DNA from: Cyanidioschyzon merolae
Taxonomy: Eukaryota
Direction: 5' to 3' (one strand)
NCBI GenBank assembly: GCA_000091205.1
Contig: AP006500.2
DNA: 64,000 nt
Numbering within the stretch: the first letter of the stretch is position 1; each line of letters starts with the position of its first letter. The notes under the pieces are model-generated. The model saw nothing but the letters and a program-made list of their open reading frames with translations, had not been told where the DNA came from and made no database searches. Both the position numbers and the translations under genes were made by a program. Below, piece by piece: positions 1 through 59,161 of this stretch.

Positions 1-330
1 TTATGCGGGCGTGGTGTGTTGGGCTTAAAGATAGTTGTTCTTTGATGAATAGTTTGTGACTAGTTTGCATCGCGCTCAGTGAGCGCACCTCGGAGATCAG
101 GCAGGCATGAGACACGACGCACATGCCGTTGTTGAAGGGGAACGTGATCCTGATCTCTAGCATGTAGATCTATTGTAAACGTTGTATTTTCGTTCAGGCC
201 ATAGCAACGTACAGTCTTTCAGTTCGATTGTGCTTCAAACCTCAAACAAGTCTAGTCAAGTGTTTTTTCGCAGTATATAACAGAAGGGTTCAAAGAGCGT
301 TCTTTCTCAAAAAACAAAAAAAGGAAAGCT

Positions 331-2761
331 ATGAAAAAGCAAGTGCACGATCCTGGAGGCCCAGTGTCGCCGGCTGCCAGAAAAAAACAAAAAACAGTGT
401 CGAGTCCAGAAGAAAAGGAAGAGAAGAAGGACCGAAAGGGGGATGCCCTACGTCGAAGGCGGCAAGAAAGACGACTGTACGACGAGATGGTGGTGAAAGC
501 CTTCCTTCTTGGACATATCAAGGATCCCTACAGGGAAAAGTTGCGAGACGCTATCGAAATACGTGTCGACTCGTACTCCAAGAGTATTGTCAAGGCGTTG
601 TCAGGACTGATGCATTTGGCGAGGGAGATGTATCGCGACGTGACGCACATGCAAACGGTCGAGATTCCAGACGATATCTTCGACAAGACGTTTATTCGCC
701 ACCTGATGCTTGGTACAGGGGAGATGCGGAGGGAAAATGAGCAGTACATGCCGTACACGAAAACTTCGCGCAATTCCGCTTCGAAGGTAATCGATACAGC
801 GGTGACGGAAATATTGACACATACGGAGTGAAAAAGTACATCACGAATCTGAAGAACCATCTGATCGTGAACCTCGAACGTTTCATGATACGCGCCGTAT
901 TTGGACTCTACCCGGGCATCTCTCGCTATGGGAAATGGGCGATTATCAACGGCATCACGAACGATCGCAAGCATGAAGATGAGGTCGAATTTGTTGACCA
1001 GAAGGCGTCAAAAGAGAGCACGAATGAAGCTGCTGTGATCCGTGCGGTTGGACAAGAGCATCGTGTGGTGCTCGGGCTGGTGCATCCAGCAGAAAAGGTA
1101 TAAGAGTTGAAAAAAGATAAGGAAAGATACGATTGTCTCCTCCTACGGTATTTCGTGTTTTTGGACCGTGAACTCGATCGCAAAGCGGAGATGAAGCTGA
1201 GTGAAGAGACAAATGGAGAGTGGGAGAGACGGAAGAATTTCCTAATGGGGAAGTGCTTCAACGTCGTTCCGTCATGCAATGCCAAGTCACATTTTGTTAC
1301 TATCGACTCCAGAATCCCTCACGGCATCATGAAGGAGATCAGTCCGGAGTTCAATGTTAACAGGGAGGAATTCTCCGGTGAAAACCGGATGACGTACTGG
1401 AAGAACATCTTCGATTTCAAACGCCTGAGAGTGAGCAAGCAAAAAGTGTTCACTGGGATAATCGAAACCGATGGAGTAGCCTTGTGTGTACACTATCGGC
1501 GGTTGAAGACAGATCAGCCAGTCCCTCCCTCGGCTGCGCCCATGACGAAGGATGAAGAAAACAAAGAGGCGGGTCCTGCAATGCAAGAGGTGGAGGACAA
1601 CGACTTTGTCGTTGGCGCGGCGGAGCATGAAGAAAACAAAGAGGAGAATCCTACGACTCAGTAGGTAGAGAATAACGACCTTGTCGTTGACGTAACGAAG
1701 GATGAAGATGAGAAGGAAGCGGACCCTGTGATGCAGGAGCTGAGGGGGAACGACCTCATCGTTGACGCGGCGAAGCATGAAGAAAACAAGAAGGCGGGCT
1801 CTGAGAAGCAGAAAGTGCAGGATAACGACTTTGCCGTTGGCGCTGACCCCGGAAACACAAATATCATAAGCATCGCAGCACCCACGCGCGCGGAAAATGG
1901 TACTCACGGTAACTTACGTCAGAAAGACATGCGTCTATTGAGGTTCTCGAGAGCGATATACAATCGATAATCGGGAATCATGAATGCGAGGAAGAAAATT
2001 GAGGCATGGAATGCAGGAATGGAGGATCACCTGGAAGCTATGAGCGAGGTGACGAGCTGCGGAGCGGACTTTGAAGCTTTTCGGAAATTCATGGAAGTTC
2101 ATAGTACCCATTGAGATGCGCTGTGGGAGGAGTATACAAAGCCCCGGTGGGCTCGTCTGCGTATGAATCTATACGGTGGGAGGCAGCGCGCATTCGCGAA
2201 TTTTTTCAATCAGTTGAGCTCCCTAAAGGAGGACGAGAGTCAGAGGCTCGTAGTAGCGTACGGAGCAGGGCGCTTGAAGACCCAAAAAAGGGGCTACGCC
2301 AGCTCCAACGACGAGAACGTACAAGGAGTGTGCACGGCGTTTTGTTACGATACCTGTAGATGAGTTTCGAGCATCCTATGCACACCGTGAACTGGGGTGT
2401 ACACTCCAGAGAGCGGAGATGGAAAAGTGCCAGAGGAGCCCTGAGGATATAAAAAAGTACGGACCGCTGACGGAGGAGCAAATGGAAAGGAGGGCAAAAG
2501 TGCGAGGGCAACTCGCGTTGGTGAGTACAACCCCCAAGCGGCAAGAAACGTATGGAGTTTGTGAACCGAGAATTTAACGCTGCCACCAATATCAGACGAT
2601 GTGCAGTGCTGGAGGAAAGACCTTCAAAGAAGACAAGAGTGAACTTTGTTGGACAACCTATCAAAGTCGAACTATATAAGAAAAAGTTGGAAGCAGTAGC
2701 AGGTAGCCTGTCCAAAAAGACCGGCAGGCGTCTACACTCCAGTTGGAGACTTCTTGTCTAG
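331..2761 (+). pseudogene. Fanzor/TnpB-like RuvC nuclease ORF interrupted by in-frame stops and frameshifts
   Basis: Frame +1 ORF 331-831 begins MKKQVHDPGGP. Frame 0 is readable from 828 to 2363 but carries in-frame stops at 1101 (TAA), 1662 (TAG), 1968 (TAA) and 2112 (TGA). There are frame changes near 830 and near 2335. The C-terminal RuvC-III region lies in frame +2 at 2552-2761. Confidence 0.6.
1500..1870 (+). repeat. Degenerate 75-80 bp internal tandem repeat (about 3.5 units) duplicating the RuvC-I coding segment
   Basis: Repeated peptides are [46 protein letters not shown] and [12 protein letters not shown]. Only the last unit keeps the GxDPG motif. Confidence 0.6.
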
Positions 2762-2833
2762 GCCGCGTTCGCCACTACTGTACACCGCTGGCGACAACGT
2801 TTTTCTTTTGAAAGGCGTTTGTTGTTGACGGTG

Positions 2834-4021
2834 ATGCCGGTTGTCGTGCTCTGCGGCTTGCCTCGAGCAGGCAAGTCAGCGCTGGCAAAGCGAATCGCTG
2901 AAGCAGCACCACCACACCTTAAACCAGTGACGATACTCTCAGATCGCGGCATAGAGGACTACGCTGAGCCGCAGCGCGAGAAGACTGCGCGCAGTCGTCT
3001 GCGTGCAGCCTTGGAGCGTGCACCTTACCGCGAACGTCTGGTGATCGTAGATGCTTGCAATCTCGTCTCTGGTTTTCGCTATGAGCTATGGTGCGTGACC
3101 CGCGTGCCCGCTGGAAAGCGTCAAGAGTCAATACCTCACGTGACAGTACTTATTAGAAGTAAGGCAGACGTTTCTGAAGTCTCCTGTGCTCATAGTCCGC
3201 CGGGATACCAGCGCTCCACTGCCGACCGGCCTTCGGCTGCAGCAGTGGGCCCAACGCGTCTTGTTGTCGAACCCGAACTGACGTCGCCGGAGAGGATCGG
3301 GCACGAGCCGCAAGCGAAAAGCGCCCGGTCGGCGAACGCAGATGCTTTGCGCTCTGTTCTGAACGGGCGATGTGAAGTGGCAGGTCCCAGACAACAGCCT
3401 CAAGCGGACAGCGACGTGGCAGCGAACATTGCCCGGGTACGAGAGCGCTTCGAATGGCCAGACCCGCAAGGCCAACGATGGGATCGACCGCTGTTCACCA
3501 TGTCATTGAAGGAGAGGGTTTGCTCGTACGAAACTCCGGATGGGTGCACGTTCTTCGAAGAAACGCAATGGGTCGCTTCCATCTATGATTGGATTTCAGG
3601 AGGCACTGCTCGGAAGGATTTCAAAACGACGTCACGAATGACGATCGCGACGCGTCAGACTCGCGTTCAATCCGCGGATAGCTACTTCGAAAGCGAGATC
3701 CGCAAAATCGAGGACGCTATTATCCAAGTGCTCTGCGCCGGAGATGAGGGCGAGCATCAACACCCCGGAACGGTGTATACGTACGACAAGTGTCCGCTTC
3801 GCCTTCCTGAATCGTACTTGCGACGGATTTTCCTGCTCGCGAATCAATCCAGTCGCCTGTATACGGTATCGCAAGATTTGCGTGCACATCGTCATCTCTT
3901 TGTACGTCGATATCAGAAACGACGGGTAGAGCAAGATTCGAGTGCTTCGGTGCAAGAGTTCATTCGGTCTCTGGAAGGATACCTTGAGCTGCGCGACCAA
4001 CAACGTCGTAGCGAACACTGA
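2834..4021 (+). CDS. KTI12: KTI12 homolog (Elongator-associated P-loop ATPase, PSTK-like)
   Basis: The protein starts MPVVVLCGLPRAGKS (P-loop, compare human MPLVVFCGLPYSGKS). It also has the LVIVDACNLVSGFRYELWCVTR and RWDRPLFTM motifs. The ATG is at 2834, inside the 2819-4021 ORF. Confidence 0.75.
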   Translation: MPVVVLCGLPRAGKSALAKRIAEAAPPHLKPVTILSDRGIEDYAEPQREKTARSRLRAALERAPYRERLVIVDACNLVSGFRYELWCVTRVPAGKRQESIPHVTVLIRSKADVSEVSCAHSPPGYQRSTADRPSAAAVGPTRLVVEPELTSPERIGHEPQAKSARSANADALRSVLNGRCEVAGPRQQPQADSDVAANIARVRERFEWPDPQGQRWDRPLFTMSLKERVCSYETPDGCTFFEETQWVASIYDWISGGTARKDFKTTSRMTIATRQTRVQSADSYFESEIRKIEDAIIQVLCAGDEGEHQHPGTVYTYDKCPLRLPESYLRRIFLLANQSSRLYTVSQDLRAHRHLFVRRYQKRRVEQDSSASVQEFIRSLEGYLELRDQQRRSEH

Positions 4022-6035
4022 AAACGACGCTGTCTACTACTGCTTAAGATGACAGCTACAGTTGTTAGCCAGCGGCGGCCGCAGGCTAAGAACGCGTCCT
4101 GGATGACAAAGGCATGAATAGCGCCAGAATCCATTGCCCAGGTCTAGGACGGAGGCAGTAGCGAGTCGCTCTGTTCGGGAGCACGCGCCTGCTCAGCGTC
4201 AGATCGCTGACGACAAGCGATGGACGCATACTATGACGACTCTGAACCTGCGCTCTCGTCGATGAGCCGGTGTGCTGCGGAGCGTCATTCGAGCAAGGAA
4301 CGGCGTCAGACAGGCGAGCATCATCAGTGCCTGAGGCGCGGCCATCGCTCGCAAACGAGTGCACTGTCGACAGCACTTGACGTTCCCGCACTAGGCATGC
4401 GAGTGCATACTATCGATCGAAAGCGGACACGTGCCCCAAGCATTAGACAGTGGACCCATTTTCGGCAAATGAACAGGGCAGTAATCTGTGTCAGTAATCA
4501 TAAGCAGATGGTATGGGAGGAGATATGGATGTAGGCGAAGTGGCGTCGCTTGGTACGCTCAGGGAAGCTTTCTTGCTAAGCGCATAGCACCTTGTTGCTG
4601 CGAAACGACACGTCTGCACAAAAGTCCCTGTATGTCGATTTTCTGCTGTTCGCAAGTCATGCGCTGTGGAAGCGCTGCCGACTCCTATGCATAGTGCTGA
4701 CACAGCTCTGCTGCACTACTCGCCGAGCGAGTGACGTGCCTGGGTTTACCTTGTGAAATCGTAGGTTCCGTTTCCTCGAACAAAAGCCTAGCACTCGATA
4801 CCGCTGTGCTTGCATGCGACTACGGCAAATCGTCTGTCTCAGGTACCGACACCCGTCGCGCAAGCGGAGACCCTCTTGGTCGACTAAATGATCCTGCAGC
4901 CCCCAAAACGACAACAACAGAACATGCGTTGCAGCGCAGACAAGACCGAGTCTAGGCGGATTCGCATTTGCTCTGTGCTACAAGCAGAAGACCCCTCCGA
5001 ATTCGAAATTTCGCTGCAGTTGCATTTCGGACGAGTCGGTTGAGCGGGTCTAATCAAAGCACCGAAAATAACTCGTGCGACATGGCCATGAGCGCAGCCT
5101 CAAGCTGGAGCGGTAGCCGTTCCTGGAACACCCATGTGGGCGACAACGATCAGCTTCCCTGGAGTCGGGTATACGCGCTTTCCCGACGGGAGAAGATTCG
5201 TATCTTGCCTCATCTATACTGTCTTGACATGCCGCCACACGGGCCTACTTCTTACCGGACCAATCGAGCGAATATGTGCAACCAAACGAATGCCATCGCA
5301 CAGCGAGACCACCAAGCAATCCATCACTTGAGAGGATCAGCTTGTCATGTTCTGGACGGCAGCCCGCAGCCATAACTTGCGTACTGCGACGACGGAAGCG
5401 ACGTGCTTGGTGGCACACGCTGCGTCCTATGGTGCCGCTCTCGGTTCCAAACAGACGCCGAGATATACCATCACGAAGCCCTGTTGCAGGACGTTCACAG
5501 GATGAGGCGGGTACAGCCTGCGCTTCCCACTCAGTCCAAGTCGGGGAACGATCCAGCGCATCTACAAGCCCAGCGAGACGACGTGTCGCAGCCGTCCGAG
5601 CCACTTTTTCTATATCCTCGGCAGGCTCATGCCTGGTGTTGGTACCGCTAAGCGAACCAACAGCTGACGTACTCGAGGAGCGTGTGCGCACACCAGGTCC
5701 AGTGCGGCTCGCTGCATCCGCAGATGACGATCCGAGCGCTTGCGTTCCAGAAAGTGTTCGTGGACGCGACGCTGACGCCGTCACCAACCGGACATCGTCG
5801 AGGACTTTTCGAATCTCTGACAAGTCCGTAGCATCGGACAGCGCGCTGCGGCGTGTGCGTCTCTATGGCGTTTCCGGCGGTGATATCACCGGCGTCGCCA
5901 GCCCTGCAGCCGGTGACGACTCCACATCCGAACTCGGGCACGCTGCCGCTGGTGCACTAGAGTTCCGACACCCGCCTGCGTGCGGCTGGGATAACGGGCA
6001 TATTCGACTTGTTAGTCCGCTCACGCGTTTTCAGT

Positions 6036-6418
6036 GCTGCTGCTGATCACTACTGATCTCTAATGACTGCTGTTGATTGCTACTGATCATTACTGATCAT
6101 TACTGATTGCTACTGATTGCTACTGATTGCTACTGATCGCTACTGATCGCTGCTGATTGCTGCTGATTGCTACTGATCATTACTGATTGCTACTGATCGC
6201 TACTGATTGCTACTGATCTCTACTGATTGCTACTGATTGCTACTGATCGCTACTGATTGCTACTGATCGCTACTGATCGCTGCTGATCTCTACTGATTGC
6301 TACTGGTCTCTACTGATTGCTACTGATCGCTACTGATTGCTACTGATTGCTACTGATTGCTACTGATCATTACTGATTGCTACTGATCATTACTGATCTC
6401 TACTGATCGCTGCTGATG
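6036..6418. repeat. Decamer minisatellite (tactgattgc and variants), about 38 units
   Basis: Direct visual tandem repetition. Variant units include tactgatcgc, tgctgattgc, tactgatcat and tactgatctc. Confidence 0.9.
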
Positions 6419-6420
6419 CG

Positions 6421-6450
<30 letters not shown>
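6421..6450. repeat. (GGC)n microsatellite, about 9 units
   Basis: gacggcggcggcggcggcggcggcggcggtacc lies directly after the decamer array. Confidence 0.9.
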
Positions 6451-14027: not shown

Positions 14028-14396
14028 CTAGGCAGTAGCTTCCATAGCGCGGTAACTTGCGGCATTCATGCTTCCACAGGGCCTAAGTTCGCGTCCGCGA
14101 TCCCACACAATGGACAAGTGAACTCCGCCGGGTGTGTCCTGCACCTCCGCCATCGACTGGGTTCGCTCAACGCATCCCCGGGGATTCGAGTTTGTGTATT
14201 GCTTCGGGTTTTCTTCATTGTAGATATCTAGGCTCAACGTCCCTTGCCTCATTTTCCGGGATGCTCGACAGTGGTGGGTATCCGAGGCATCCACCAGTGC
14301 CCCGCTCCAAATATGACGAGGCCCGTCTCGTTTCGGACAGGCCTTCTTAATGGCTTCCAACTGAATTGTGTTATACCCCCAGGTGCGCGTCATCAA
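14028..14396 (-). CDS. Small hypothetical ORF (122 aa) with a weak MsrB/Mss4-like C-terminal resemblance
   Basis: The segment GGVHLSIVWDRGRELRPCGSMNAASY loosely resembles MsrB GGHLGHVFDDGP...RYCINSAAL. Its 5' end abuts Fanzor-derived copy B. Confidence 0.25.
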   Translation of the reverse strand: MMTRTWGYNTIQLEAIKKACPKRDGPRHIWSGALVDASDTHHCRASRKMRQGTLSLDIYNEENPKQYTNSNPRGCVERTQSMAEVQDTPGGVHLSIVWDRGRELRPCGSMNAASYRAMEATA

Positions 14397-14907
14397 GTGC
14401 TTTTTTTCGCGGTTTACAGCAGAAGCGTTCCAAGTGTGTTTATTTTCAAAAAAAAAATCGAGGGCATGTTATGGACATGCAAGTCAGGGATCCTGGTGGG
14501 CCTCTATCGCTGGGTGCCGGAGAAAAACAAGAAAATCCTCATGTGATCGAGCGTCGAGCGAAGAAGAGCAGCTGGCGGAGAATCAGAAAAAGAATACTAG
14601 GGGCGATAAGCGAGATACGGTTTTCACCCGGCTGTACGATGACGAGACTCTTGCCGTACAGCGGGCACGAGTTGCAGTGATCTTTGTACTGGTTCCATCA
14701 ACCAGTTGCAATAGAATCGCGGAGTTCGTGAACCGAGATTCCATCGCCGTCATGGTTGTCAGCCGATTTACGTTGCTGAAGAGGAGACCCGCGGCGCTCA
14801 CGCGAGCCAACTTGTGGGTCAGCCTCCCCGGCTCGGAGTGTACAAGGAGAAACAGAGCCCGATAGCAGTCAGCCGGTCAAAAACGGCTGGGAGGCGTCTC
14901 CTTCCGG
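14349..14907 (+). mobile_element. Non-autonomous internally deleted Fanzor-family element (copy B)
   Basis: The 5' end actgaattgtg...tcaagtgctttttttcgcgg and the ORF start ATGGACATGCAAGTCAGGGATCCTGGTGGGCC match copy A. A remnant EFVNRDSIAV is followed by the 3' module gatagcagtcagccggtcaaaaacggctgggaggcgtctcc. Confidence 0.65.
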
Positions 14908-16862
14908 GTATTAAGTTTCGCTCCATGGTCTTGAAACGTCTATGGCTTTGCGGACTATCTAACTCGCCGGAAAATCGGGCTGTGCTGCAGTAGTATTTCA
15001 GCGCTTCCCTGTGGTTTCCTCTGTTGCTTCGTTTTCGTTCTCTTTGATGCAGAGTCAAGGAGACCGAACGAGTGCCCTTGAATTCAGGATCAAAGGAAAA
15101 ACGTGGTATCGCGTTGACAAGGTTTCAACTGATGACTCGAACAACCCGACGAATGTTTGCTGTGTCGAACATCGCGAAACGATTGGGTATCGTGCCAACG
15201 TGTCTTCCTGGTGCATCCATGTCGTATTTAAATACAACATTGAACTGCTCGCACTGGCCCTGCTTTTCGATCTTATTCCAGAACTTGTCTAGATATACAG
15301 CGTCGACATTCGGTGTGGGACCATAGCGCCGTCCGGATTCATATATGGATTTAGAGTTCTCGGTTGTGATTTGGGATAGGCTTCATTGTCGCCTTGGCAC
15401 TGGAATGCTTAACTTCACCGGATTCAGGATGATTCGCAACATCCCTGACCAAGGATGCGTAAAATAATCGATACCATTATCCACTGCATATGTACAAGAG
15501 TACACGCTTCTCATTTCCTAAGGTGTAGCACGCTCAACTCTAGCATTTTTCAAATTCCGATTTTCTGTTTCAGCGACACTCGAGAGCGCAGCAATGCGTT
15601 CCGCTTCATTGGCGATGCGGGAGACTCGACGTCGCCGCTTGGGGACCTGTTCACAAGCTCATGCCTAACGTTCACTGAGCATGTAACCTCAAACAATTAC
15701 TTCTGATCGAAGAGGCAAATCGTTCTGTCGTTGAGGCCACTGACGAAACCGTATTCGACGGCATCGTCATGTCTCCCGCGGAATATGTCCCCAGAAGCTC
15801 CTCTTGCCTTCTGTTTCTTTCTGTAGGGAAGTATCATGGACTCGGGCTTGAGTCATCAGAGCAATGGCTTCCGGTGAGGCGTGCGTCATCGCCTTGCGCA
15901 AAGGCAGCATGGACGGATCGGAAATTCTCGACTCGGTCTCCAGCAAGAATTCGCCTTCCGGTACTTGTTTGATCGTAGACAGCATCGCGTTGAACAAATC
16001 GTGTATCGAATGCGACAACGTGTGTTTGCTCGTGCCGCGTCCAGGAAACGCTCCGAGCGGATCACCCAGACAAAGTCCAGTATCGTATTCTACGGCACCG
16101 GGCCCCGAAACGGAGGTTTGGATCCAAGAGAGCCCTCTCCATCTATGAAAAGCACGTACCGAGCGCGATGAATCAAGCGTTCATGCGCGGCAGAGTAGTT
16201 CCCAGAAAAAAAAAGCATATAGAAGGTGGACGTACGCGAACATCTACCCACAGTCAAGTGTCATCGATACGAATCGCGCGCCGAGGCGGTGTACAAAGGA
16301 AACAAAAAGCCCACGCGATGTATCGATCGTAACTTTTCCCGCTGCATGGAATGCGTCGATTAAAGCCGGAAGCAGCAAAGTCGGAATTCAAACGCTGCGA
16401 TCAACATCCTTAGACTGCTTACAGACGATCTCGAGGGAAAGGAGAAACCGTCGAACGTAAACCTAGAAATAAAACATAGGAAATACAGCTTTCGCAGAGC
16501 AATCCTTCAAAGGCTGGTGTTGATAACAACGGGAAGAAGCTCCAGTTTATTGTGTACATTCGAGTTCATGAAATGAACCCGTTCCATTTTATGCCGACAT
16601 TCCTGGAGCGGCACGACAGGCAACGCAACGACCTGCCGGCTGGCGACGCGTAGACCGTGGCGCCACCCCGTGTCCCGCACCGCACGGCACCGCACAGCAA
16701 CGCGCTCTTCAAGCGTACGCTCTCTGAACGCCGGGTGTGTCGTCAACGACGAACGCCCCTGAGCCGAAACCCTGTGAGTCCTTCACAAGAGTCTGGTGTT
16801 TCTAAATTGCTGTGAGCGCGTGCGGTGGGGTTTTCTTGGCCTGCTTTTGGATCGAAACTCGA

Positions 16863-25846: not shown

Positions 25847-27162
25847 TCGCGACGGTTCCAGTTAGGTCCTGGTGCCAACCAGAGCGCTTTTGAAGGAAAG
25901 GATCGTCCCCGAGGCCGGGGTCTGCTGAGAACTCCAGCCCTGTCCGAGGCAAACGTGGACCGTTCGCGTCACCGTTCAGTGGACGGGGGCTCCATTCATT
26001 GTTGCAGCACGCACTGCCAGAGAGCCTGATCGTCCAGAGTAACTTGTACCGAAGCCGCTAACGCTCAACCAAAGCTCCGGCACGGCGGACTCCAGGGTAT
26101 CCAAAGTGGGAAGGTTTGTCGCTGCACTGCGTCAAACAGTTTCCTAGAGCAAAGTTGCGTTCCAAGTCGGGTCTTCTCTAGTCTTGCAGGTCAATAGTGT
26201 TCCGCACCGGACGTGTGTCAAAGCGTGCGATTTCATGGTAGAGAGCATGCGATCGAAATCACGATGCAATATACCATACAGATCGTGGACGAAATGCCTG
26301 TACGACATATGCTTTACTGAACAGTACAAGGAGGACTGCAATCTTTCTTCGGGTGAGTCGTACATCAGTGCTCAAATGGCTGAGGATCACTGCAAGAGAG
26401 AAGGATATGCTCTCCGTGCCAAAAACTGATATGTTCAAAGTCTGCTTCCAGTCTATGGCAGGGAACGGCCCGTTGATCACCTTACGGAAAGCGAAAGCGA
26501 CGATAGCGGCTGGCACAGGCATCCCTGTTTCACAACCTCTTGTTCGCGTGGTCCTTAAAACACTGGGAAAAAAGTCGTAATAAAACAGTCCTAGTTCACG
26601 AACGCCCATTTTCCACCGAAATCGCATCTGCAGTATTCCTGGAGCGTTGAGATCCGCGTGAAGCGCGTGGACATTGGTTTGTTTTTTCAGTCGACGAGCC
26701 TCCCTTCGGACGAAACGGTCGGGACGTACATGGGTATTCGGGGTGAAGGGAGCTTGGTGTCCAAACGATTGAACTCGGAGAGATCGACAAGATCCTCTGT
26801 GGTCGTTACAAGGGATTCATCTGGCGGCCTCAGTTTCGCTCTTGCAGAATACTCAGACAACAGCACCCGCTATGTCGAATCATCGAAGAGTTTTCCCTGG
26901 CGTTTGGTGACTTGATTGAAAAACGTGGTATTTCACCATTCGCCTTGCATTCGAGCGTTTGCCGATTCTATCAGGGGTATAGCTGTTTTCCATTCCTTCG
27001 TAGAGTCCATGGTTCAACCACGCATCGACGGATGATTTTCTATCGCGAAGCGTATTGATCGCTCCACTGGGCAAATCGCTGGAGCGTTCACCAAGGTGAG
27101 CCGGGGGCAAATGTCGACTTTCTTCCTCAAGTCCCTCTCACGCCGAGAAGGCCCTCAACTAG

Positions 27163-27559
27163 GGACATCACGCAGTGCATTCATTTTCAAAAATAAGAAA
27201 TCTAATGGATGCGCTGGGTTGTACACCTCAAAAGGTTGGGATGGAGAGAAGGCAGTGGAGCGCTTCGGCGATTGAAAAGCACGGAGAGCTGACAGAGCAC
27301 CAAACGGCACTGAGGGCAAGAGTTCGAGGAATCCTTGCAATGATGAGTACCACCAGCATCAGTAATCGCATGGAATTCGTAAACCGAGGCTTCAACGCTG
27401 CTATCCATATCAGACGATGTACGTTGTTGAAGACGAGACCCGGGGATTTGAGGCGAACCAACTTCCTGGGGCAGCCTCTGATGCTCGAAGTGTGCCTAAA
27501 GAAACTGATTCCGATCGCATGCGGCAGATCAAAAAGACTGGGCGGCGCCCGTCAGTTGG
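27163..27559 (+). mobile_element. Non-autonomous internally deleted Fanzor-family element (copy C)
   Basis: The 5' start of the ORF is retained (ATGGATGCG...). The ORF 27175-27564 encodes RARVRGILAMMSTTSISNRMEFVNRGFNAAIHIRRC, colinear with the copy A C-terminus. It ends with the 3' module gatcgcatgcggcagatcaaaaagactgggcggcgcccgtcagttgg. Confidence 0.65.
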
Positions 27560-28358
27560 TATGAATTCAGTCTGTATTCATTTATAGGAACAGAAACGAA
27601 CCTTTATTTAGGAGCGAGATAACAATCCCGTTCTCTATCTACGATAAGCGTTGATAGGGGGAAAGTTTCCGCATGGTCGAGAGTTCGCCTTCTAGGCGGA
27701 AGGCCAGCGAGACGGACGAGTCTACCAAGCTCGTGCTTCATGCTTCCTCCAGTGGCAAGTGTTTTAGTGAGATCTGAGCAGCTCGTCCGCAAAACGCAGC
27801 TCATTCTGGGATCAGGTGCAGTTAGGCTGCATCTGGGCGTCGCCCTGGTCGCAGTGGACTCCTAGGATATCGCTTCACGCTGCCGCAGGCTGTACGTCTG
27901 CCAGTGCAGCTTGCAGGCTCGCAGAATGATCATATACTTCGACTCCGTATCAGGTGAAGCGTTCCTCGATCCGACGTGCTCAGTGGCGTGCCAAAGCCGT
28001 TCTATCCCCATGATACATCTGCTCCAGCGATATAAGCGCCACGGCGAGCGCACAAAACAGGTACTCGGTGAACGATACAACATACGAAACGGCCAGTATA
28101 TCCGAAAGCAAGTATGGGAGATGGAAATTCAAGGTAGTTGCTTCATGACGGGCGCTTTCCCGAAAGCCATGATCCATCCCGCAATCTGGGATTCACGGTC
28201 TATGTAAACGTATTTGCATCGAAAAGGAATCGGACATAAGTGCGGGAACCGCTTTCTGTCGAGAGCGACGTTCCCTTGTATGCCCGTGGCCTCCTCTGGC
28301 TGTGCACGGTCTTCATGCGTCGTTCGCTTCCATCTTTTCCTGATTTGAGACGCTGAGG

Positions 28359-40918: not shown

Positions 40919-41417
40919 ACTGAATTGCTTTTTCACAATTTATACCATGCGCATTCGAAGTATGTTTATTTGAGGAAACAGAAATCTAAGTGAAAGGCAT
41001 GGACATGCAAGTCGGCAATCCTGGATGACAGTCAATGCCGGCTGCCGGAAACAATCCTCCTCTTGTCGACCATCGAGCGCAGAGGCGCAAGTGACGACGA
41101 AGACGAAGAGGGCGAATAGGCGAAAAACAGTGCCTCCCGACGGGACGATAACGAGACTTTTGTCGCACAGAGGGTACGGGTCTGAGAAATCCTTGCAAAG
41201 GTGCGTTCAACCGGTGTCAATGTACGCAAGGAGTTCGTGAGCCCAGACCTCAACGCCGCCGTCAATATCACACAATGTGTAGCACTGGAGACTAGACCCG
41301 CGGAGCCGACGCGAGCGAACTTTGCAGGGCATCCTCTCCCGCTCGATGTGTACAAGCAGAAACTAAAACCGATAGCAGTCGGACGGTCGAAAAGGGATGG
41401 GAGGCGTCTTCCAATGG
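40919..41417 (+). mobile_element. Non-autonomous internally deleted Fanzor-family element (copy D)
   Basis: The 5' end actgaattgcttttt and the ORF start ATGGACATGCAAGTCGGCAATCCTGGA are retained. A remnant KEFVSPDLNAAVNITQC (RuvC-III with D intact) is followed by the 3' module gatagcagtcggacggtcgaaaagggatgggaggcgtcttccaatgg. Confidence 0.65.
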
Positions 41418-41750
41418 TTTTCCATTTACCCTACACGGTCGTGGGACATTTTTTGTTTCACGAACATTTATGTATATTGGGGAATAATTGCATCAGAGAG
41501 GTGATTGTTGCTTGCTTCCGCTTGTGGTGATCCACGCCGACATCTCCACACCATCGAAGAACGATGTGCATCCGTCCGCAAATGACGCATCCCGCACATG
41601 CCTCCTGCTCCTACGATGACTGTCTATACGTTGACGATGCGAACCAAGCCAAAGACAAGTTTAAACAGAAAAACCTCGCTTTCGTCGCGCGATGTCGTTG
41701 ATATGCAGCGCCGGTCGGGATCACTCCTGTTCACGGGTACGCACCGTGCG

Positions 41751-48030: not shown

Positions 48031-48149
48031 ACTCGTTTCAAACCTAGAGCCTGTACGTCTTCACCAGGCCGTATGTGTGGAGAGCGTTGCGTGGGTCATG
48101 CTGCCACCACTCGGCACGCGGGATCGGCGGTTGGCATCGGAAATGGCGG

Positions 48150-48695
48150 CGTTGTGCGCGTCCATCGCTGAGGCGCTGCGTTCTGGAGTTGTGTGGAGGC
48201 TCATGATGGGCGCTGCGTTCTGGAGTTGTGTGGAGGCTCATGATGGGCGCTGCGTTCTGGAGTTGTGTGGAGGCTCATGATGGGCGCTGCGTTCTGGAGT
48301 TGTGTGGAGGCTCATGATGGGCGCTGCGTTCTGGAGTTGTGTGGAGGCTCATGATGAGCGCTGCGTTCTGGAGTTGTGTGGAGGCTCATGATGGGCGCTG
48401 CGTTCTGGAGTTCTGTGGAGGCTCATGATGGGCGCTGCGTTCTGGAGTTGTGTGGAGGCTCATGATGGGCGCTGCGTTCTGGAGTTGTGTGGAGGCTCAT
48501 GATGGGCGCTGCGTTCTGGAGTTGTGTGGAGGCTCATGATGAGCGCTGCGTTCTGGAGTTGTGTGGAGGCTCATGATGGGCGCTGCGTTCTGGAGTTGTG
48601 TGGAGGCTCATGATGAGCGCTGCGTTCTGGAGTTGTGTGGAGGCTCATGATGAGCGCTGCGTTCTGGAGTTGTGTGGAGGCTCATGATGAGCGCT
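48150..48695. repeat. 37-bp satellite array, about 14.5 units (cgctgcgttctggagttgtgtggaggctcatgatggg)
   Basis: Period 37 was verified at 48211 and 48248. The variants are gatggg versus gatgag. Confidence 0.9.
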
Positions 48696-48716
48696 GCGAG
48701 TCTGCTGCGAATCCCT

Positions 48717-49874
48717 ACCTGCTTTTGCACCTGTCTCGGATTGAAATGGATCACAGAGCTGCTCATTCTGTTCCTGCGCTGAGGCTTCTTTCCGAACTGG
48801 TTCTAGACATAGAGAACCTCGACATTCGAAGTGCAGCAACACGAGCATTCGGATCGATACCTAGTTCTAGGATGCGGGGGCGTCTTTTCCGAGTGATATA
48901 TTCGAAGAATACTTGCGGATGGAATTCGTTGCGTTGCTGGAGTCAAAATGATTCGCGGAGTGTCATCGAAGATGCGTTCGTAAAATATCCGATATCATTA
49001 AGCAATGGATATGTACGAGCCTCCAGTGTGCGCCTGTGCTGATGTGCAGCATCCCCGTACCGTACACTCTTCAAGATCCCTGTCTGGGTATCTCATGGAG
49101 AATCGCGGGCGCTGTGATTCCGGTCGATTGATGGACAATGATAGATACTCGACGTCGCCTGCGCACGACTGCCTCACAAGATCTTATCGCAAGTTCAGTG
49201 CAACGCTCGCGTCCAATAGCCGATTCCGTTCGAAAAGCAAATCCTCCTGTCTCGATCGCGATCGACGAAGCGGGACGCTGCACCGAGGTGACGCCCCCGA
49301 CGGGATACGTCCCGAGACGATCCCGTCTCTCCAGGCTGCATAGACAAGTATCTTGGACCGGGACTCGAGTCATCGGAGGTACCGCTGCCGGTGGATCGAG
49401 CGTCACTGCTCGGCACAAGCGAGGAGCGTAGACGGATCAACGTATCGCGACTTGACCTGTTGCCAGGGCTCCTCTTTCGGTGCTCGGTTCGTCACGTACA
49501 ACATCGCGTTCCACGAATCATCGATCGAAAGGGAGTGCGTTCGCTCGCACGTGTATCGGTCGGATTACGTGCCGCTGGGATCGCAAAGAACAAGCACGTG
49601 ATCACAGTGTACGGCAATGCCGGCGGTTACGGACGAGGGCATCGACGGTATCCTTGGGTACTCGTCGAGGGCATGCAGCGCTCGATGATGCAAGTATTCG
49701 TGCGCCACTGGGCGGCTCTCGGAGGAGGAGTAGGGAGCGTGCTGGGCACCAGACGGCACCAGACCACAGCCAGGTATCGACGATGCCAGGAGCACAGCGA
49801 GGCTCTATACGAAGAAGATGAAAATAGCAAGCGAGGCTTCGGTCGGAGCTTTCGCCTGTCTTTGGAATACGTTG
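48717..49874 (+). repeat. Left arm of a large inverted repeat pair (about 1.15 kb, about 99% identical to 57918-59063 on the opposite strand)
   Basis: ORF 49480-49821 and ORF 57973-58314 (minus strand) encode 113-aa products differing at one residue. The boundaries were mapped by divergence after ctgcttttgcacctgtctcgg and ctttggaatacgt. Confidence 0.85.
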
Positions 49875-51945
49875 AAAGCAGCGTGAAGCAATGAGGTAAG
49901 GACTTGAACGGTAGGGACAATATCCGTCCACTCCTGATTATTGATCTGGAGGCAAAGGAGAGACCAGCGTATTGAAAGCGGGGTAGCCGACAGGCGAAAA
50001 GGAGGAATTCGCAGGAAAAGCGCTCAGAGGCTTGTGTGCGCAGCAATGGGGGAAGCGACCCAAACTTTCGTACGTATGACCGACTTGCTGACAAGACCTG
50101 TTCCCCTTTATTCTGCGATGGTTGTCAGAGCAGTGATAATTGAAACCTGCCGAAACCCTTCCGGATTGTTACCTACGAAAAGCTCTACTCACGCTCCCAT
50201 AGATCGTTCGTCTGTAAAGCATCCGCAATAGCCGGTGCTCATGGGCGTTCCCAAGGAATATAGGCACAGCGCGAGGCACGCAGATAACGATACTGGTCCC
50301 AGGCTTGCCGCTGGATATAACTGCACGTCTTCGTTCCTGTGCTGGTGACGTCGTTTATCCGGCTGAGCGGCTACTGCACCGCTCAGCGTGCAAGGTCCAG
50401 CAGCCAGACGGCCAAGGAACTGATGATGCATCCCAACACGCCTGCGAACGGCTTCTTGAACGATGCTCGCCAATGCATCATCGGCCTTTTGCCCGTGATG
50501 TGCTCCATATAGCCGACGCGGCAACACTAGCCTCCGGTTCTGAGAGGGACGTTCGCCTGCATACCACTGCGGCTGCCAGCAACGGCTCCTTATCGGCCAG
50601 TGTCACACAAGTCGGTGCTTGGAACGACACCTTGGTACGCACAGGAACGCTAGTGGGTAGACGTTGCTCTGGTTTAAACGGGCGAAACTGCTCGGGTCAC
50701 AGCGTGACTGCTCGGCATCGATGAGGAAACAAATGCTCGCGCGTTGTGTAGACGTGGCTTTGCAGCGACAAGCAGGTAAAGCGCATGCTGCGGCAGCAAC
50801 TCCACAAAAAACATACACCTCTGTATCGATATGCGTACATCGGTGTCGCAGGTCTTGCCATTACCCCATAAATCCGACATGACACCGTTGAAACTCCACC
50901 GAAAACGGACGCTTATGTGGCAATACTCACAGGTGTTTAGCGAAATACCTCCGATGTTACGGTATCGATCCACTGCATACAGTCAATCAAGTCGTCTTTC
51001 GTTGATGTTTCCACGAACGCGAGGAGAAGCAGTGCCTCAACACTGAACGCAACCAGCACTCCATGCGGAGACAAGTGGCCCTGCCCCAATGTTTTAGGTA
51101 GATCGCTCGCCCATATGGACTGCTTGGAGAGCCAGAACCCGAAATATGCAGACCCTGCGACCTGCAGAGGTTCACCCAGAAGCCGCACCACTTGAGCACG
51201 TTCCCTGACACACGCAAAACGAGCGAGCAGTGCCTGCGTCTCCGCAACATTTACTTCAAGACTGCCGTATTGACCGACAACTTTGGAACTCGGTTCCGTT
51301 GGCGGTGTCGAACGCTTGTCGCTTTCCTGACAAGATTCAAGTGTACGCAGCAAGACCAGGCTCCCGCTGACGACGCTCTTCGCATGGACCCGTTTCTGCC
51401 AGGTATTGACGCGACCTTGGTACTCCATCGGCGCTTGTATAGTACGCTAGATGCTTTGAGACGATGATGAGGCTTTTCTCAGGTGCTTATTCACACGCTC
51501 AGCGGGAAGCGTCGCAAGGAAGCTTCCAGGTAGCAGCGTGCGACGTACCTCCAGAAACTATATTGTTCTGTGTTCGGAACACAGCTCCGTTAGGGCCCTG
51601 ACCTCGCTCGAAACTAGATTAATTTTCGACAACCATACCGCAATGACTCGTTCACGTGCGCTCAACGAAAACCGAAAGAATAGCTACAGTTTGCGTCTGG
51701 AACAAGCGAGTACAACGCAGACTTCGCAGCGCCCGTTAGAGACGCTAGCGGCTGCGCTAGCGCCCAGCCAGCGTCCACCGATGGCAGCATTGCTTGCAGT
51801 CGACGACTACTGCTGCTGCTCGCTATGGTGCTAGCGAGCGTCCTCGTTGCACGTCGACGGACGTTTGGCCTCTGGGAACCTCTCCTGCAGCGCCGACCGA
51901 AGCGCATAGCCTCGCGCAAGAACGAAAGCGCAAAGCGCCGTTTAC

Positions 51946-53862: not shown

Positions 53863-55261
53863 GCACTCGAGCACGAGCCGCTGCTCTAGAGATCGCGAGG
53901 TGAAAGTACGGCCGGCCGCGGTGTGCTTCCCCAGCGGAATGCCTGCTGATATACGAAGAGGCCAACTTGAAATGGTGCGCGCGGATTCGAGTCGGCTCCA
54001 GACCCCTGGTGTTTATCCATCAAGTTTAGATGAGCACTTGCGAGGATTACTCGCATAGGAGCTGTGCATCGCTATGATTATAAACGGCCCAATAGGGCAT
54101 GTATGCTGGGCAGAAGTGCGGCCAACGCGTCGACGCGCTCACTAATGCAATAACAGTCACTGGTCACAGGTGATAGCGATAGCACGCTGTATGGCATCGG
54201 CAACGACCCAGGACAGCTGGTCAGTGCTCTTGTTTTGAAACTTAGACCTCTTAGCAGCTATTTGATGATGCGCTGTTCGGCATGCTCCTAAAGGCAAGTC
54301 GCGATTCGGGACGCCGTGCGGCAGACCTCGTGTCTCGGCGCTCGACGTTCACGGATGCGTCCACTCGGTGCGACGTGTTTCAGTTTAACGGAGAAGGGTG
54401 TGTGAAGAGGTTGTTGCCGCGTTGTTTGTCGTGTGCTGTGCAAGATACTCTTCACCATAAGCAGGTGTCAGGCATTCATCCATCGATATCGCAACGAGTG
54501 AAGCCAAAAGATCCGGAATTTTCGATGAACACATGAAAGATCTGTCGGGGGCGTTCTCTCTCTAGAAGCGGTGAAGCTTGCTGGTCGCCCATCGAGGCAC
54601 CAGTTACCAGCCCTTGAACGCATCGCAGCTGAGTTGCCCTGAAGAGCTCCTGCAACACAGAGCAAACGAACATGCTTTCGATTCATACCCGCAAGGTCTT
54701 CATATGGTCATTGACTAGGCACTTTCGACAAGTGCCAGTGAGCGCCATATGAGGCTACCGAAGGGTGTTCGGCTCGATCATGTGCTCCAGCGATGGCTTT
54801 GTGCACGTTGTTCGCAACTTTGCTGAGAGTCTTTCCGCAGAGAGCCCCGCGGCAAAACAATACGCTTATATGGCCAAGCGCGTACTGCACTGAGAGCTCC
54901 AGGGCAGCACGGCTCCTTCGGACACGCTGCGTGATGCGCTGGCGTCTATCTGGCTGAGGATGCACATTCACGACAGGCGCGTAGGTCTGGCTCGAGTGCC
55001 GGCGAGTCAGCACCTCCCGGTCTACGGTTACCGACACCAAACGGGGGCACGCAGTATCACCAGGTGAAGCGCTCTTGCTCAGAGCACTGCACCGCACTAT
55101 TCAGTTCCGAACGAAACATGATCTGTACGCTCCACCGGCGCCTTTGCTTGATTCCGAAAGACACCTCGCAGCAGTACAGCTCCGCAAGGCATTGTCGCAA
55201 CCATCAGCCGCCTCTACTATGAAGTGACATACGATTTTCGCTCCTATATAAAAGTTTCCAT

Positions 55262-55610
55262 GACGGTACTCGAACAGAATCGGGCACTCTTTGCACCAAA
55301 CTTAAAGGTACGTGATACTCGAGTAGAATCGGGCACTCTTCGCACCAAGCCTAGAGGCTCCTGGTACTCGAGTAGACTCGGGCACTCTTTGCACCAAGCC
55401 TAGAGGCTCCTGGTACTCGAATAGACTCGGGCACTCTTTGCATCAAGTCTAGAGGCTCCTGTTACTCGAGTAGACCCGGGCACTCTTCGCACCAAGCCTA
55501 GAGGCTCCTGATACTCGAGTAGACCCGGGCACTCTTCGCACCAAGCCTAGAGGCTCCTGATACTCGAGTAGACACGGGCACTCTTTGCACAAAGCCTAGA
55601 GGCTCTACAG
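55262..55610. repeat. 49-bp minisatellite, about 7 units (actcgagtagactcgggcactctttgcaccaagcctagaggctcctggt)
   Basis: Units start at 55317, 55366, 55415, 55464, 55513 and 55562. The first unit is diverged. Confidence 0.85.
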
Positions 55611-55920
55611 CGGGAATTCGCCGACTGCGAGTTACCGCGTCGAACGACGGCGCTCGCAAATTCCTATCATCCGCCGTCGCTATACTAGCTTTATTGCTAG
55701 AGTGTCATCCTTCGTTTTCACGAGAACTCGTAACACTTTAGGTATTGAGTTCCTAGTGAATCTTCTTGCCGACGTGAAGAAGCCACTGAAGAGGAATTGT
55801 GAACCAGTGTGTGTGCCGGTTTCGGGTGTAACGCAGCTGGCGCTGTAGCATCGTGTACCTGTTCGGTAGAGAAGGTGAGCAGCGCTGCGCGTGGCGGCTG
55901 CTCGGCTGCAGCGGCACATC

Positions 55921-56586: not shown

Positions 56587-57917
56587 GCGCCGCGGCTTCG
56601 GCCCTGCTCTATCCCGGACCGGAGCGTTCATGGCGACAACTGCACAGAATTCGACATCCGTATGCACGTTTGTGCTGAGGCCTCAACACGCAAGTCTAGG
56701 ATCGCTCGGATTTTTGGACACTTCCGTCTCGGTGTGAAGCTGATCGAGCGTTTGTCATCCCGTGCCCGGCGAGCAGCGTAGCCTGCTTATGGGGCTCGTG
56801 GATGCGCTGGCATGTTAGACCTGTGATGCTCGCAACGCAGCATGGAAGGATACATGCTGAGTGGAGAGCTTTCACGATCCATTCGGCCCGAAAATTGGCC
56901 TCCAACCACGAAGTGCTGGAGCAAGGCGCACTCGCTTTAGGGTCGGATCGGCACCTGCTGCTCCACCCTCGTAATCGCATCATCTCCGACGGCTGAGTGT
57001 ACAGCCAAATCTGCAGCAAAATATCTGTGAGTGTCGTGCCTTTCTATAGAACTGTTTTATCTTGATTATCGTCTCGGATAACGAACGCTAACCTTGCCGA
57101 TAGTGTTCGCGTCCCTGGAGCCTATGGCAGTGCCTAGACAGCTGTGCATAGGAGTCAGCAACGCTTGGTTGCCTGCGAGATGTCGCATGGATTCTTCCCC
57201 GACGATGCTATGATCCCGTTAGAGATCTAATGTGAGTGTGTGTCTCAGACGCCGACGTGTCATTCAAGAAAGCTGAACGATACTCCTGCATCAAGTACGT
57301 CACTGAATGCTTAAAATGCACAGATGCGCTATTGGGGCTGTGAATTTCGCACAAGAATACTCGACCGATACGCCTGCAGCAAGTACGCTAGCAAATATCC
57401 CAGAGAATGCACAGTTGCGTTTCACGCATTTGCGCAGGGGATATCGAGACGGTGCGATGTATGGTACTGCGAGCGTTACGTCTTCTGAATGTACAGTGCC
57501 GTATACATCCCGGGATTCGCGCTACCCTTTCGTATGGGTCCTGCTCCCTGCAGCCCAGGAGCAGCAGCTGGTGCTCGGGATCCGGTGCAGTACGTCGCCA
57601 GCCGCGCTCATATCGGAGCTGAGAGGATGACGCGATTTCTTTAACGTGTATAGCGCCGTCCATTTATATCAGCAGAACATGGAGTGGGGCAGGTCGATTG
57701 ACTTGCTGCTCGGATGTACACAAAAAAAGACGGGTTTCTTCCTGCTGCCGTCAACATCACCATATCCAGACTTTGTCTCCGACTATTTCCGTATCCTCGC
57801 TTGTGTTCCGTTTTAAATGAGCCGCTGAGCTTGCTCGTCTCAAACTCGATTGTCGGCAGTCAATGGATGTTGATGGCAGTTTGTTCAAGACCCGATTTCG
57901 CTGTTCCCACTGCGGCT

Positions 57918-59063
57918 GTCGACGTATTCCAAAGACAGGCGAAAGCTCCGACCGAAGCCTCGCTTGCTATTTTCATCTTCTTCGTATAGAGCCGCGCTGT
58001 GCTCCTGGCATCGTCGATACCTGGCTGTGGTCTGGTGCCGTCTGGTGCCCAGCACGCTCCCTACTCCTCCTCCGAGAGCCGCCCAGTGGCGCACGAATAC
58101 TTGCATCATCGAGCGCTGCATGCCCTCGACGAGTACCCAAGGATACCGTCGATGCCCTCGTCCGTAACCGCCGGCATTGCCGTACACTGTGATCACGTGC
58201 TTGTTCTTTGCGATCCCAGCGGCACGTAATCCGACCGATACACGTGCGAGCGAACGCTCTCCCTTTCGATCGATGATTCGTGGAACGCGATGTTGTACGT
58301 GACGAACCGAGCACCGAAAGAGGAGCCCTGGCAACAGGTCAAGTCGCGATACGTTGATCCGTGTACGCTCCTCGCTTGTGCAGAGCAGTGACGCTCGATC
58401 CACCGGCAGCGGTACCTCCGATGACTCGAGTCCCGGTCCAAGATACTTGTCTATGCAGCCTGGAGAGACGGGATCGTCTCGGGACGTATCCCGTCGGGGG
58501 CGTCACCTCGGTGCAGCGTCCCGCTTCGTCGATCGCGATCGAGACAGGAGGATTTGCTTTTCGAACGGAATCGGCTATTGGACGCGAGCGTTGCACTGAA
58601 CTTGCGATAAGATCTTGTGAGGCAGTCGTGCGCAGGCGACGTCGAGTATCTATCATTGTCCATCAATCGACCGGAATCACAGCGCCCGCGATTCTCCATG
58701 AGATACCCAGACAGGGATCTTGAAGAGTGTACGGTACGGGGATGCTGCACATCAGCACAGGAGCACACTGGAGGCTCGTACATATCCATTGCTTAATGAT
58801 ATCGGATCTTTTACGAACGCATCTTCGATGACACTCCGCGAATCATTTTGACTCCAGCAACGCAACGAATTCCATCCGCAAGTATTCTTCGAATATATCA
58901 CTCGGAAAAGACGCCCCCGCATCCTAGAACTAGGTATCGATCCGAATGCTCGTGTTGCTGCACTTCGAATGTCGAGGTCCTCTATGTCTAGAACCAGTTC
59001 GGAAAGAAGCCTCAGCGCAGGAACAGAATGAGCAGCTCTGTGATCCATTTCAATCCGAGACAG
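57918..59063 (-). repeat. Right arm of the large inverted repeat pair
   Basis: Reverse-complement match to 48717-49874. ORFs 57885-58403 (minus strand) and 49391-49894 (plus strand) are near-identical. Confidence 0.85.
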
Positions 59064-59161
59064 GTGCAAAAGCAGAGCGTGCACGATGATGCGATACCAC
59101 ACATTCCATTGCTGCCTGCATGCAGAACATACGTGGAACAGTCATGGCATCAACATGGAGG

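Follow-up and report, generated by a model that had tools for sequence, protein, structure and literature searches.

Candidate guide-RNA scaffold at the right end of a relic Fanzor1 transposon family in Cyanidioschyzon merolae, a red alga

Do the decayed repeats of a small algal genome still show where a Fanzor nuclease once kept its guide RNA? The question is raised by a stretch of 64,000 nucleotides (nt) of Cyanidioschyzon merolae (contig AP006500.2 of assembly GCA_000091205.1; hereafter the window), in which a first-pass annotation had noticed four Fanzor-family copies, named A to D, and had read the last part of each (positions 2650-2761 in copy A) as a conserved 3' module and candidate scaffold of the guide RNA (omegaRNA). 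The four repeats are certainly what is left of a Fanzor1 transposon family that was already known. The highlighted block is former coding sequence of the nuclease, and the structured part of the element lies further to the right. With moderate confidence, based on folding models and comparison of copies, we propose that the active ancestor made a sense-strand omegaRNA with a predicted scaffold of ~140 nt across the stop codon and a guide taken from the flank past the terminal ..GTG of the element.

The window is from strain 10D of C. merolae, two of its predicted proteins being identical to BAM82547 and BAM82551; the genome is compact and intron-poor (~55% G+C). Within the window there are four copies only, all on the + strand; they were recovered by blastn with the 3' end of copy A (E values of 1e-11 to 1e-22) and were also grouped as one repeat family (D5), which confirms the four homologous 3' segments. 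The block ..GGTC-AAAA-..GGGAGGCGTC is present in the copies; the consensus that the first-pass annotation had given for it matches, with three or fewer mismatches, copies B and D alone (0 matches expected by chance), A and C being more diverged. A chance origin of the similarity is ruled out by the blastn E values and by this count.

Copy A (67-2833, + strand) is a near full-length pseudogene of a Fanzor1 element of the CMe-1A type (see below), with 87-88% identity to the family consensus over 67-2825; similarity to other copies ends at ~67 on the left and at 2825-2833 on the right. Its disrupted Fanzor1 open reading frame (ORF; 331-2761, + strand, stop codon TAG at 2759-2761) is interrupted by four in-frame stops and by frameshifts (three or more), and its third RuvC motif has RE in place of RD. 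The family consensus, taken as the majority over aligned full-length copies, restores a clean ORF of 784 amino acids (aa) with the C-terminal end ..LEAVVGGRSKKTGRRLHVSWRRFV. Stop-codon reassignment was considered for the in-frame stops of copy A and rejected, since the ORFs of adjacent genes are clean and those stops are missing from the consensus.

The three other copies are short and belong to a second subfamily, copy A being a member of the main (A-type) family. Copy B (14393-14958, + strand) is an internally deleted ghost derivative, in which a junction links the 5' leader (~100 nt) and N-terminal coding sequence (~190 nt) to the final ~250 nt of the ORF and a ~55-nt tail. Copy D (40925-41468, + strand) is the same derivative, and a single deletion junction is common to B, D and a metagenome locus (L017:~900-1460); B and D hence represent one non-autonomous derivative that spread, independent losses being excluded by the common junction. 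Copy C (27150-27610, + strand) is a second, independent deletion derivative, with a junction at ~27210 at which the 5' leader and ATG (27205-27207) pass into the last ~111 codons and the tail (tblastn, consensus aa 663-773 at 27214-27543). All three short copies have kept the 5' leader along with the 3' part, so that both ends and the candidate RNA region were kept, and the nuclease gene lost, at several ghost-type loci (B, D and L017; C separately). The third RuvC motif is altered in the window copies (RE in A, RG in C, PD in D), and all four are dead relics. No empty or polymorphic site was found for A or B; the orthologous contigs of related strains (98-99% identical) carry both.

The protein stitched together from copy A has relatives of 60-75% identity in hot-spring metagenomes. 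A wider Fanzor profile of the family and more distant relatives (55 sequences aligned; 2174 matches at E <= 0.001) matched the solved Fanzor1 chains of Parasitella (9cf0, E 1e-22), Spizellomyces (8gkh, 1.8e-16) and Guillardia (9cer, 1.8e-11), and the Fanzor-family label of the first-pass annotation is thereby borne out. Searches of the PDB with a single sequence or a shallow family profile gave no match; the deeper 55-member profile alone succeeded. The Pfam family PF07282 was matched in 14 of the 55 relatives, and a Pfam scan of the stitched copy A protein and of the family consensus gave no usable match (the consensus reached PF07282 with its RD..NAA end only, E 0.86). The family consensus contains the RuvC motifs GADPG, VDEFRTS and NRDFNAAINI, with D, E and RD in the right order and spacing; the 55 relatives all share D484, E656 and R724, and nearly all share D725. 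Between E and RD no C4 zinc ribbon was recognized, as the consensus TSYTHHELGCTLQRVEMEKCQ has two cysteines and no CxxC pairs, and the consensus of the relatives is likewise without them; judged by these sequences, this Fanzor clade seems to have lost the zinc ribbon. Bao and Jurka (PMC3627910) nonetheless class the C. merolae family as Fanzor1. An AlphaFold2 model (23-sequence alignment) had a mean predicted local distance difference test score of 33.9, too low for a fold search.

The sole Fanzor1 family given for C. merolae is CMe-1A (Bao and Jurka 2013, PMC3627910), described with ~150 copies roughly 80% identical to a consensus of ~3 kb, no terminal inverted repeats (TIRs), undetermined target-site duplications (TSDs), and unknown class. 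The window family agrees with CMe-1A in host, length, lack of TIRs, high copy number, old diverged copies, and the D..TS..RD layout; we infer from this published description, rather than from alignment to its consensus, that the window repeats are CMe-1A. The published account of CMe-1A (PMC3627910) gives neither a guide RNA nor defined ends and reports no deletion derivatives with a retained 3' end; the one derivative named there, TE-N2_CMe, is the 5' 635 bp. Nor was a guide RNA for CMe-1A given in the Fanzor literature searched.

The highlighted block of copy A (2650-2761, + strand) is the C-terminal coding tail past RuvC-III, ending in ..GQPIKVELYKKKLEAVAGSLSKKTGRRLHSSWRLLV and the stop codon. 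Because the 784-aa consensus ORF runs in frame to ..LEAVVGGRSKKTGRRLHVSWRRFV, the terminal block is coding sequence, in frame, for the nuclease's basic C-terminal tail. The special conservation that had been attributed to it was not found: the mean pairwise identity of 16 distinct full copies is 0.76-0.80 for 2650-2760, 0.795 for the whole element, and 0.64 for the non-coding tail. Between the subfamilies the whole ORF was aligned at 71-75% nucleotide identity, with the alignment stopping at 2733-2737, exactly at GGAGGCGTCT; within the C-terminal half, conservation is lowest in the final 40 codons (0.66-0.72 at codon positions 1+2, 0.42-0.57 at position 3), a plain coding signature.

An exception is found among the ghost copies B, D and L017, where the module is the best-kept segment, with identities of 0.67-0.79 (B-D 0.79, this pair scoring 0.53-0.69 elsewhere; the other two pairs 0.67-0.68) versus 0.57-0.69 in other segments and 0.52-0.55 in the tail. 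Taken together with the stop of inter-subfamily similarity exactly at GGAGGCGTCT, this could mean that the block itself (2650-2740) is a functional RNA module. We consider this very unlikely; the block has no stand-alone folding signal and no covariation, either across the four window copies or across subfamilies, and it is the least conserved coding stretch between full-length subfamilies. Its retention among ghosts is a lead, not a result, as there are three such copies only and the B-D pair drives the effect. The module is indeed present in the copies that have lost most of the ORF (B, C and D), as the first-pass annotation had stated; B and D are, however, not independent cases, as they share their junction, and the left end was kept equally. 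Such retention does not by itself indicate a cis-acting RNA, since any non-autonomous transposon keeps its ends. The module is shared among the copies because of common descent and because it formerly encoded the C-terminal tail of the nuclease.

To set the ends of the element, 60 related loci were compared. Similarity among copies at different insertion sites extends well beyond the stop codon; the non-coding tail of the A-type copies is ~70 nt and ends in ..GGTG(TG)TG, beyond which the flanks are unrelated. Pairing in copy A ends with CGGTG at 2829-2833, and copies B and D continue to ~14958 and ~41468, respectively, so that the earlier right-end coordinates had cut off 45-70 nt of each element. 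An unrelated flank directly past the ..GTG terminus is a property of any transposon end. The terminus of copy A (2833) adjoins the ATG (2834) of a KTI12 homologue with zero spacer, and the element therefore provides the entire upstream region of this gene. A solo right-end fragment of 103 nt was also observed (L060:851-953, also L011:800-902); it corresponds to window positions 2728-2827, starts with GCGTCT, and has no left end nearby.

The folding of the right end depends on whether these true ends are used. The four intervals of the first-pass annotation fold like shuffled sequences (z of -1.46 in A, -0.57 in B, +0.02 in C and +0.69 in D), and a structural comparison of the four 3' ends revealed no compensatory changes. 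The 6-bp hairpin reported for copy B (cagccg/cggctg) is real, with 14870-14875 pairing with 14884-14889, but it is not a conserved helix; it is disrupted in C and D without compensating changes, and the matching helix has a G·G mismatch at its middle in nine of 23 A-type copies, and several lineages can form one, in differing registers.

For the family consensus, a segment of 141 nt around the stop codon (-71 to +69) has a minimum free energy (MFE) of -69.5 kcal/mol versus -48.9 +/- 3.8 kcal/mol in shuffles (z -5.45), and its MFE structure is identical to the centroid. This terminal segment is the extreme of 37 windows of 141 nt along the consensus (next best MFE, -49); z is -0.06 for the segment wholly inside the ORF (-141 to -1) and -1.4 for the minus strand of the terminal segment. 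Of 19 windows in the real, decayed copies, the last 140 nt reach the lowest mean z (-2.45 and -2.09; 12-16 copies), and the + strand of the right end is stabler than the - strand (Wilcoxon p 0.0006, for copies that are not independent).

Two parts make up the predicted structure, a rod that a long-range helix closes and, after it, a terminal stem-loop; the candidate omegaRNA scaffold of copy A is located at 2691-2833 (+ strand). The closing helix of the rod (10 bp) pairs coding GCAGUAGUGG with non-coding CCACUACUGU (in copy A, GCAGTAG at 2693-2699 with CTACTGT at 2775-2781), and inside the rod GAGGCGUCU pairs with AGACGUUUC. In the terminal stem-loop (~20 bp) CACNGNNGGCG is paired, with many G·U pairs, to the G/T-rich final 15 nt; the G·U-rich stem-loop of copy A (2783-2833, + strand) reads CACCG.CTGGCGACAACGTTTTTC-TTTT-GAAAGGCG.TTTGTTGTTGA.CGGTG, and the covariance model (R1) matches at 2777-2831. 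For 2691-2830 of copy A itself, z is -1.42 (+ strand) and -0.59 (- strand); copy D has a tail G·U hairpin of ~10 bp with the core GTGGGAC-ATTTTTT-GTTTCAC (z -2.0 for 41350-41468). At the level of the family the right end is thus structured on the sense strand; in the four window copies, all decayed, the signal is weak or missing. The proposal of a guide-RNA scaffold at the 3' end is reasonable in this family-level form, with the candidate at 2691-2833; the block 2650-2761 overlaps its 5' half only. An Rfam scan of 2300-3000 gave a single sub-threshold chance match (V_AS7, 25.8 bits versus a gathering score of 90).

A structure that is specific to the sense strand, lies at the 3' end of the ORF and runs out into a G/T-rich stretch might instead be a feature of the Fanzor mRNA, serving stability of the 3' untranslated region, 3'-end formation, or a stop of transcription that shields neighbours in a compact genome; that the terminus of copy A sits at the start codon of the next gene would fit such a role. 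We give this explanation little credence, because the long-range helix joins coding sequence to the tail, the structure is kept in ghosts that encode nothing, and the spread of non-coding derivatives would be left unexplained; no such element was found in C. merolae, though none was looked for.

Since the copies differ mostly by neutral decay, in which pairs are broken at random, weak covariation signals are to be expected. For the terminal stem-loop, a covariance model was built from three copies and 23 distinct matches were aligned; 83.2% of the cells are paired versus 77.8% in shuffles (reached by 0 of 500), and 23 cells are changed on both sides versus 11 (again 0 of 500), with the reservations that the model had aligned the copies so as to fit the structure and that related copies inflate shuffle tests. 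One pair of this stem was seen as five types (CG, GC, GU, AU and UG). Independently of this test, different lineages keep a terminal hairpin with differing sequence and register, for example as GTTCGA/TCGAAC, CGTTTTTC/GAAAGGCG, GTGCCAC/GTGGCAC or, in D and L026, GTGGRAC/GTTTCAC. RNAalifold gave a weak result for 23 A-type 3' ends (-8.75 kcal/mol, covariation term +0.34).

Besides these reservations, several results weigh against an omegaRNA. Covariation of the rod, which overlaps the ORF, is weak: in a structure-blind MAFFT alignment, 84.2% of cells are paired versus 82.8% in shuffles (reached by one of 500), and pairs with double changes number six versus 3.7 expected, which 59 of 500 shuffles reach. 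In the second subfamily no conservation of the structure is recognisable, except for the short terminal hairpin, and z is similar on both strands; RNAalifold with the window copies and their second-subfamily relatives gave -9.7 kcal/mol with an unfavourable (positive) covariation term. In the main family the 3' region does not exceed the rest of the element in conservation (coding part 0.76-0.80, tail 0.64). Finally, the consensus top-strand DNA also out-folds its shuffles (z -2.0 to -2.3), with the bottom strand at ~0, and a DNA role for the terminal hairpin is possible on these models.

An explanation by DNA alone would hold that the copies share ancestry and cis-acting DNA ends only, with the hairpin acting as top-strand single-stranded DNA and no RNA being made; the ends would have been kept since an unknown transposase needs them, as for the ends of IS200/IS605 elements or the 3' hairpin of Helitrons. 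The excess stability of the top strand, with none on the bottom strand, is in line with this, as are the retention of the left end as well as the right in the deletion derivatives, the lack of TIRs and of determinable TSDs (PMC3627910), and the plain codon-position pattern of the coding block; the left-end core also opens with hairpins, for which the lineages, read by eye, use different pairings. The excess stability is, however, far larger with RNA parameters (z -5.4 versus -2.3) and relies on many G·U pairs, the structured region extends ~70 nt into the ORF, and a right-end guide RNA is made in every Fanzor or TnpB system studied so far. DNA and RNA roles are moreover compatible, the right end of IS200/IS605 doing both. 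A role as DNA only is the main rival reading, although we judge it rather unlikely.

The left end itself is heterogeneous (window 1-110 and the loci L030, L035, L016 and others). Its core contains the palindrome GCGCTCA-G-TGAGCGC (74-88), followed by GGCATG..CATGCC (103-128); other lineages have GTGCGC..GCGCAC at the first site. Many copies share additional 5' sequence of over 330 nt, in all probability the part that Bao and Jurka named TE-N2_CMe. In copy A and L030 this place is taken by GCGGGCGTGGTGTGTTGGG (window 5-22) just upstream, which resembles the terminal motif of the right end.

In the omegaRNA reading, which we prefer, the active ancestor would have transcribed the RNA in the sense direction, with a scaffold from ~70 nt inside the ORF to the last base of the element; the rod closed by the GCAGUAGUGG/CCACUACUGU helix would come first, then the long G·U-rich terminal stem-loop, and the guide would be read from the DNA that flanks the terminus (in copy A, after 2833). 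As other Fanzor1 proteins have been shown to do, the Fanzor1 protein would bind this omegaRNA and cleave matching DNA. The internally deleted copies (B and D as one derivative, C as another) spread non-autonomously with both ends kept. The general expectation of a right-end guide RNA, sometimes overlapping the ORF, matches the Fanzor and TnpB literature (PMC10432273): SpuFz1 has a scaffold of 75 nt downstream of the stop codon and a guide of 14-15 nt, the GtFz1 scaffold overlaps 17 codons, the ISDra2 TnpB scaffold also overlaps the end of its ORF, and Spizellomyces carries ORF-less ghost loci with functional Fanzor scaffolds, which the ghost-type copies described here parallel. Known Fanzor1 scaffolds range from two to four stem-loops (Saito 2023, PMC10432273; Xu 2024, PMC11423790). 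The candidate would resemble the omegaRNAs of SpuFz1, GtFz1 and PpFz1 in its right-end position, sense orientation, and stem-loops; those may also overlap the last codons, and they use a flank guide of 14-21 nt (PMC10432273, PMC11423790). It differs from that of SpuFz1 in length (~140 nt versus 75 nt), in its overlap of ~23 codons, in being predicted, and in a protein clade without the CxxC..CxxC zinc ribbon; no resemblance in sequence to the known omegaRNAs was noticed, though no search aimed at it was made.

TnpB-only IS200/IS605 elements and their PATE-like derivatives offer a further parallel, with no TIRs or TSDs, hairpins near both ends, short derivatives that keep the ends, and a right end that holds a guide-RNA scaffold overlapping the nuclease gene (a candidate in the present case). 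The C. merolae family differs in its eukaryotic host and in its two end hairpins, which are unlike each other; no Y1 transposase is known or was found, none having been searched for. CMe-1A and its ghosts might be a eukaryotic counterpart of these elements, with top-strand hairpins at both ends, a right end of ~140 nt that is both transposition signal and omegaRNA, and ghosts that supply extra guides, a view that we put forward as speculative and quite unlikely. If it were true, this red alga, poor in introns, would offer a simple system in which to study the service of Fanzor to its transposon.

Further features were observed within the element. The stretch 2399-2518 (consensus codons 665-704, TLQRVEMEKCQRSPEDITKYGPLTEEQMERRAKVRGLLAL) has a third-position identity of 0.88 between subfamilies, equal to or above that of positions 1+2 (other windows, 0.42-0.79), which suggests nucleotide-level constraint or recent exchange; part of this stretch is retained in both kinds of deletion derivative. 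The RuvC-I region (1851-1990) also out-folds its shuffles in 16 copies (z ~-1.9), with the + strand stabler than the - strand. Tandem repeats of 75 nt (25 aa) are located in the Fanzor ORF at 1545-1842, and their number differs by copy (gaps and low identity at 1530-1770). Elsewhere in the window there is an inverted repeat of 1164 nt (48719-49882 and 57912-59075; 99% complementary, arms 8 kb apart), and long tandem arrays are located at 5958-6450, 48061-48800 and 55216-55656, with periods of 10, 37 and 49 nt.

For the window itself the outcome is mostly housekeeping, i.e. dead relics and a highlighted block that is former coding sequence. The family was already catalogued; what is plausibly new is the predicted right-end scaffold, a model drawn here from dead copies only. 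The defined right end and the scaffold prediction turn a repeat of 'unknown class' into a testable object; what is predicted is a scaffold of ~140 nt that spans the stop codon, a G·U-rich stem-loop at the terminus, and a guide that begins past ..GTG. C. merolae, which has one old Fanzor1 family in a genome that is tiny, well assembled and genetically tractable, bears on the role of Fanzor in eukaryotes.

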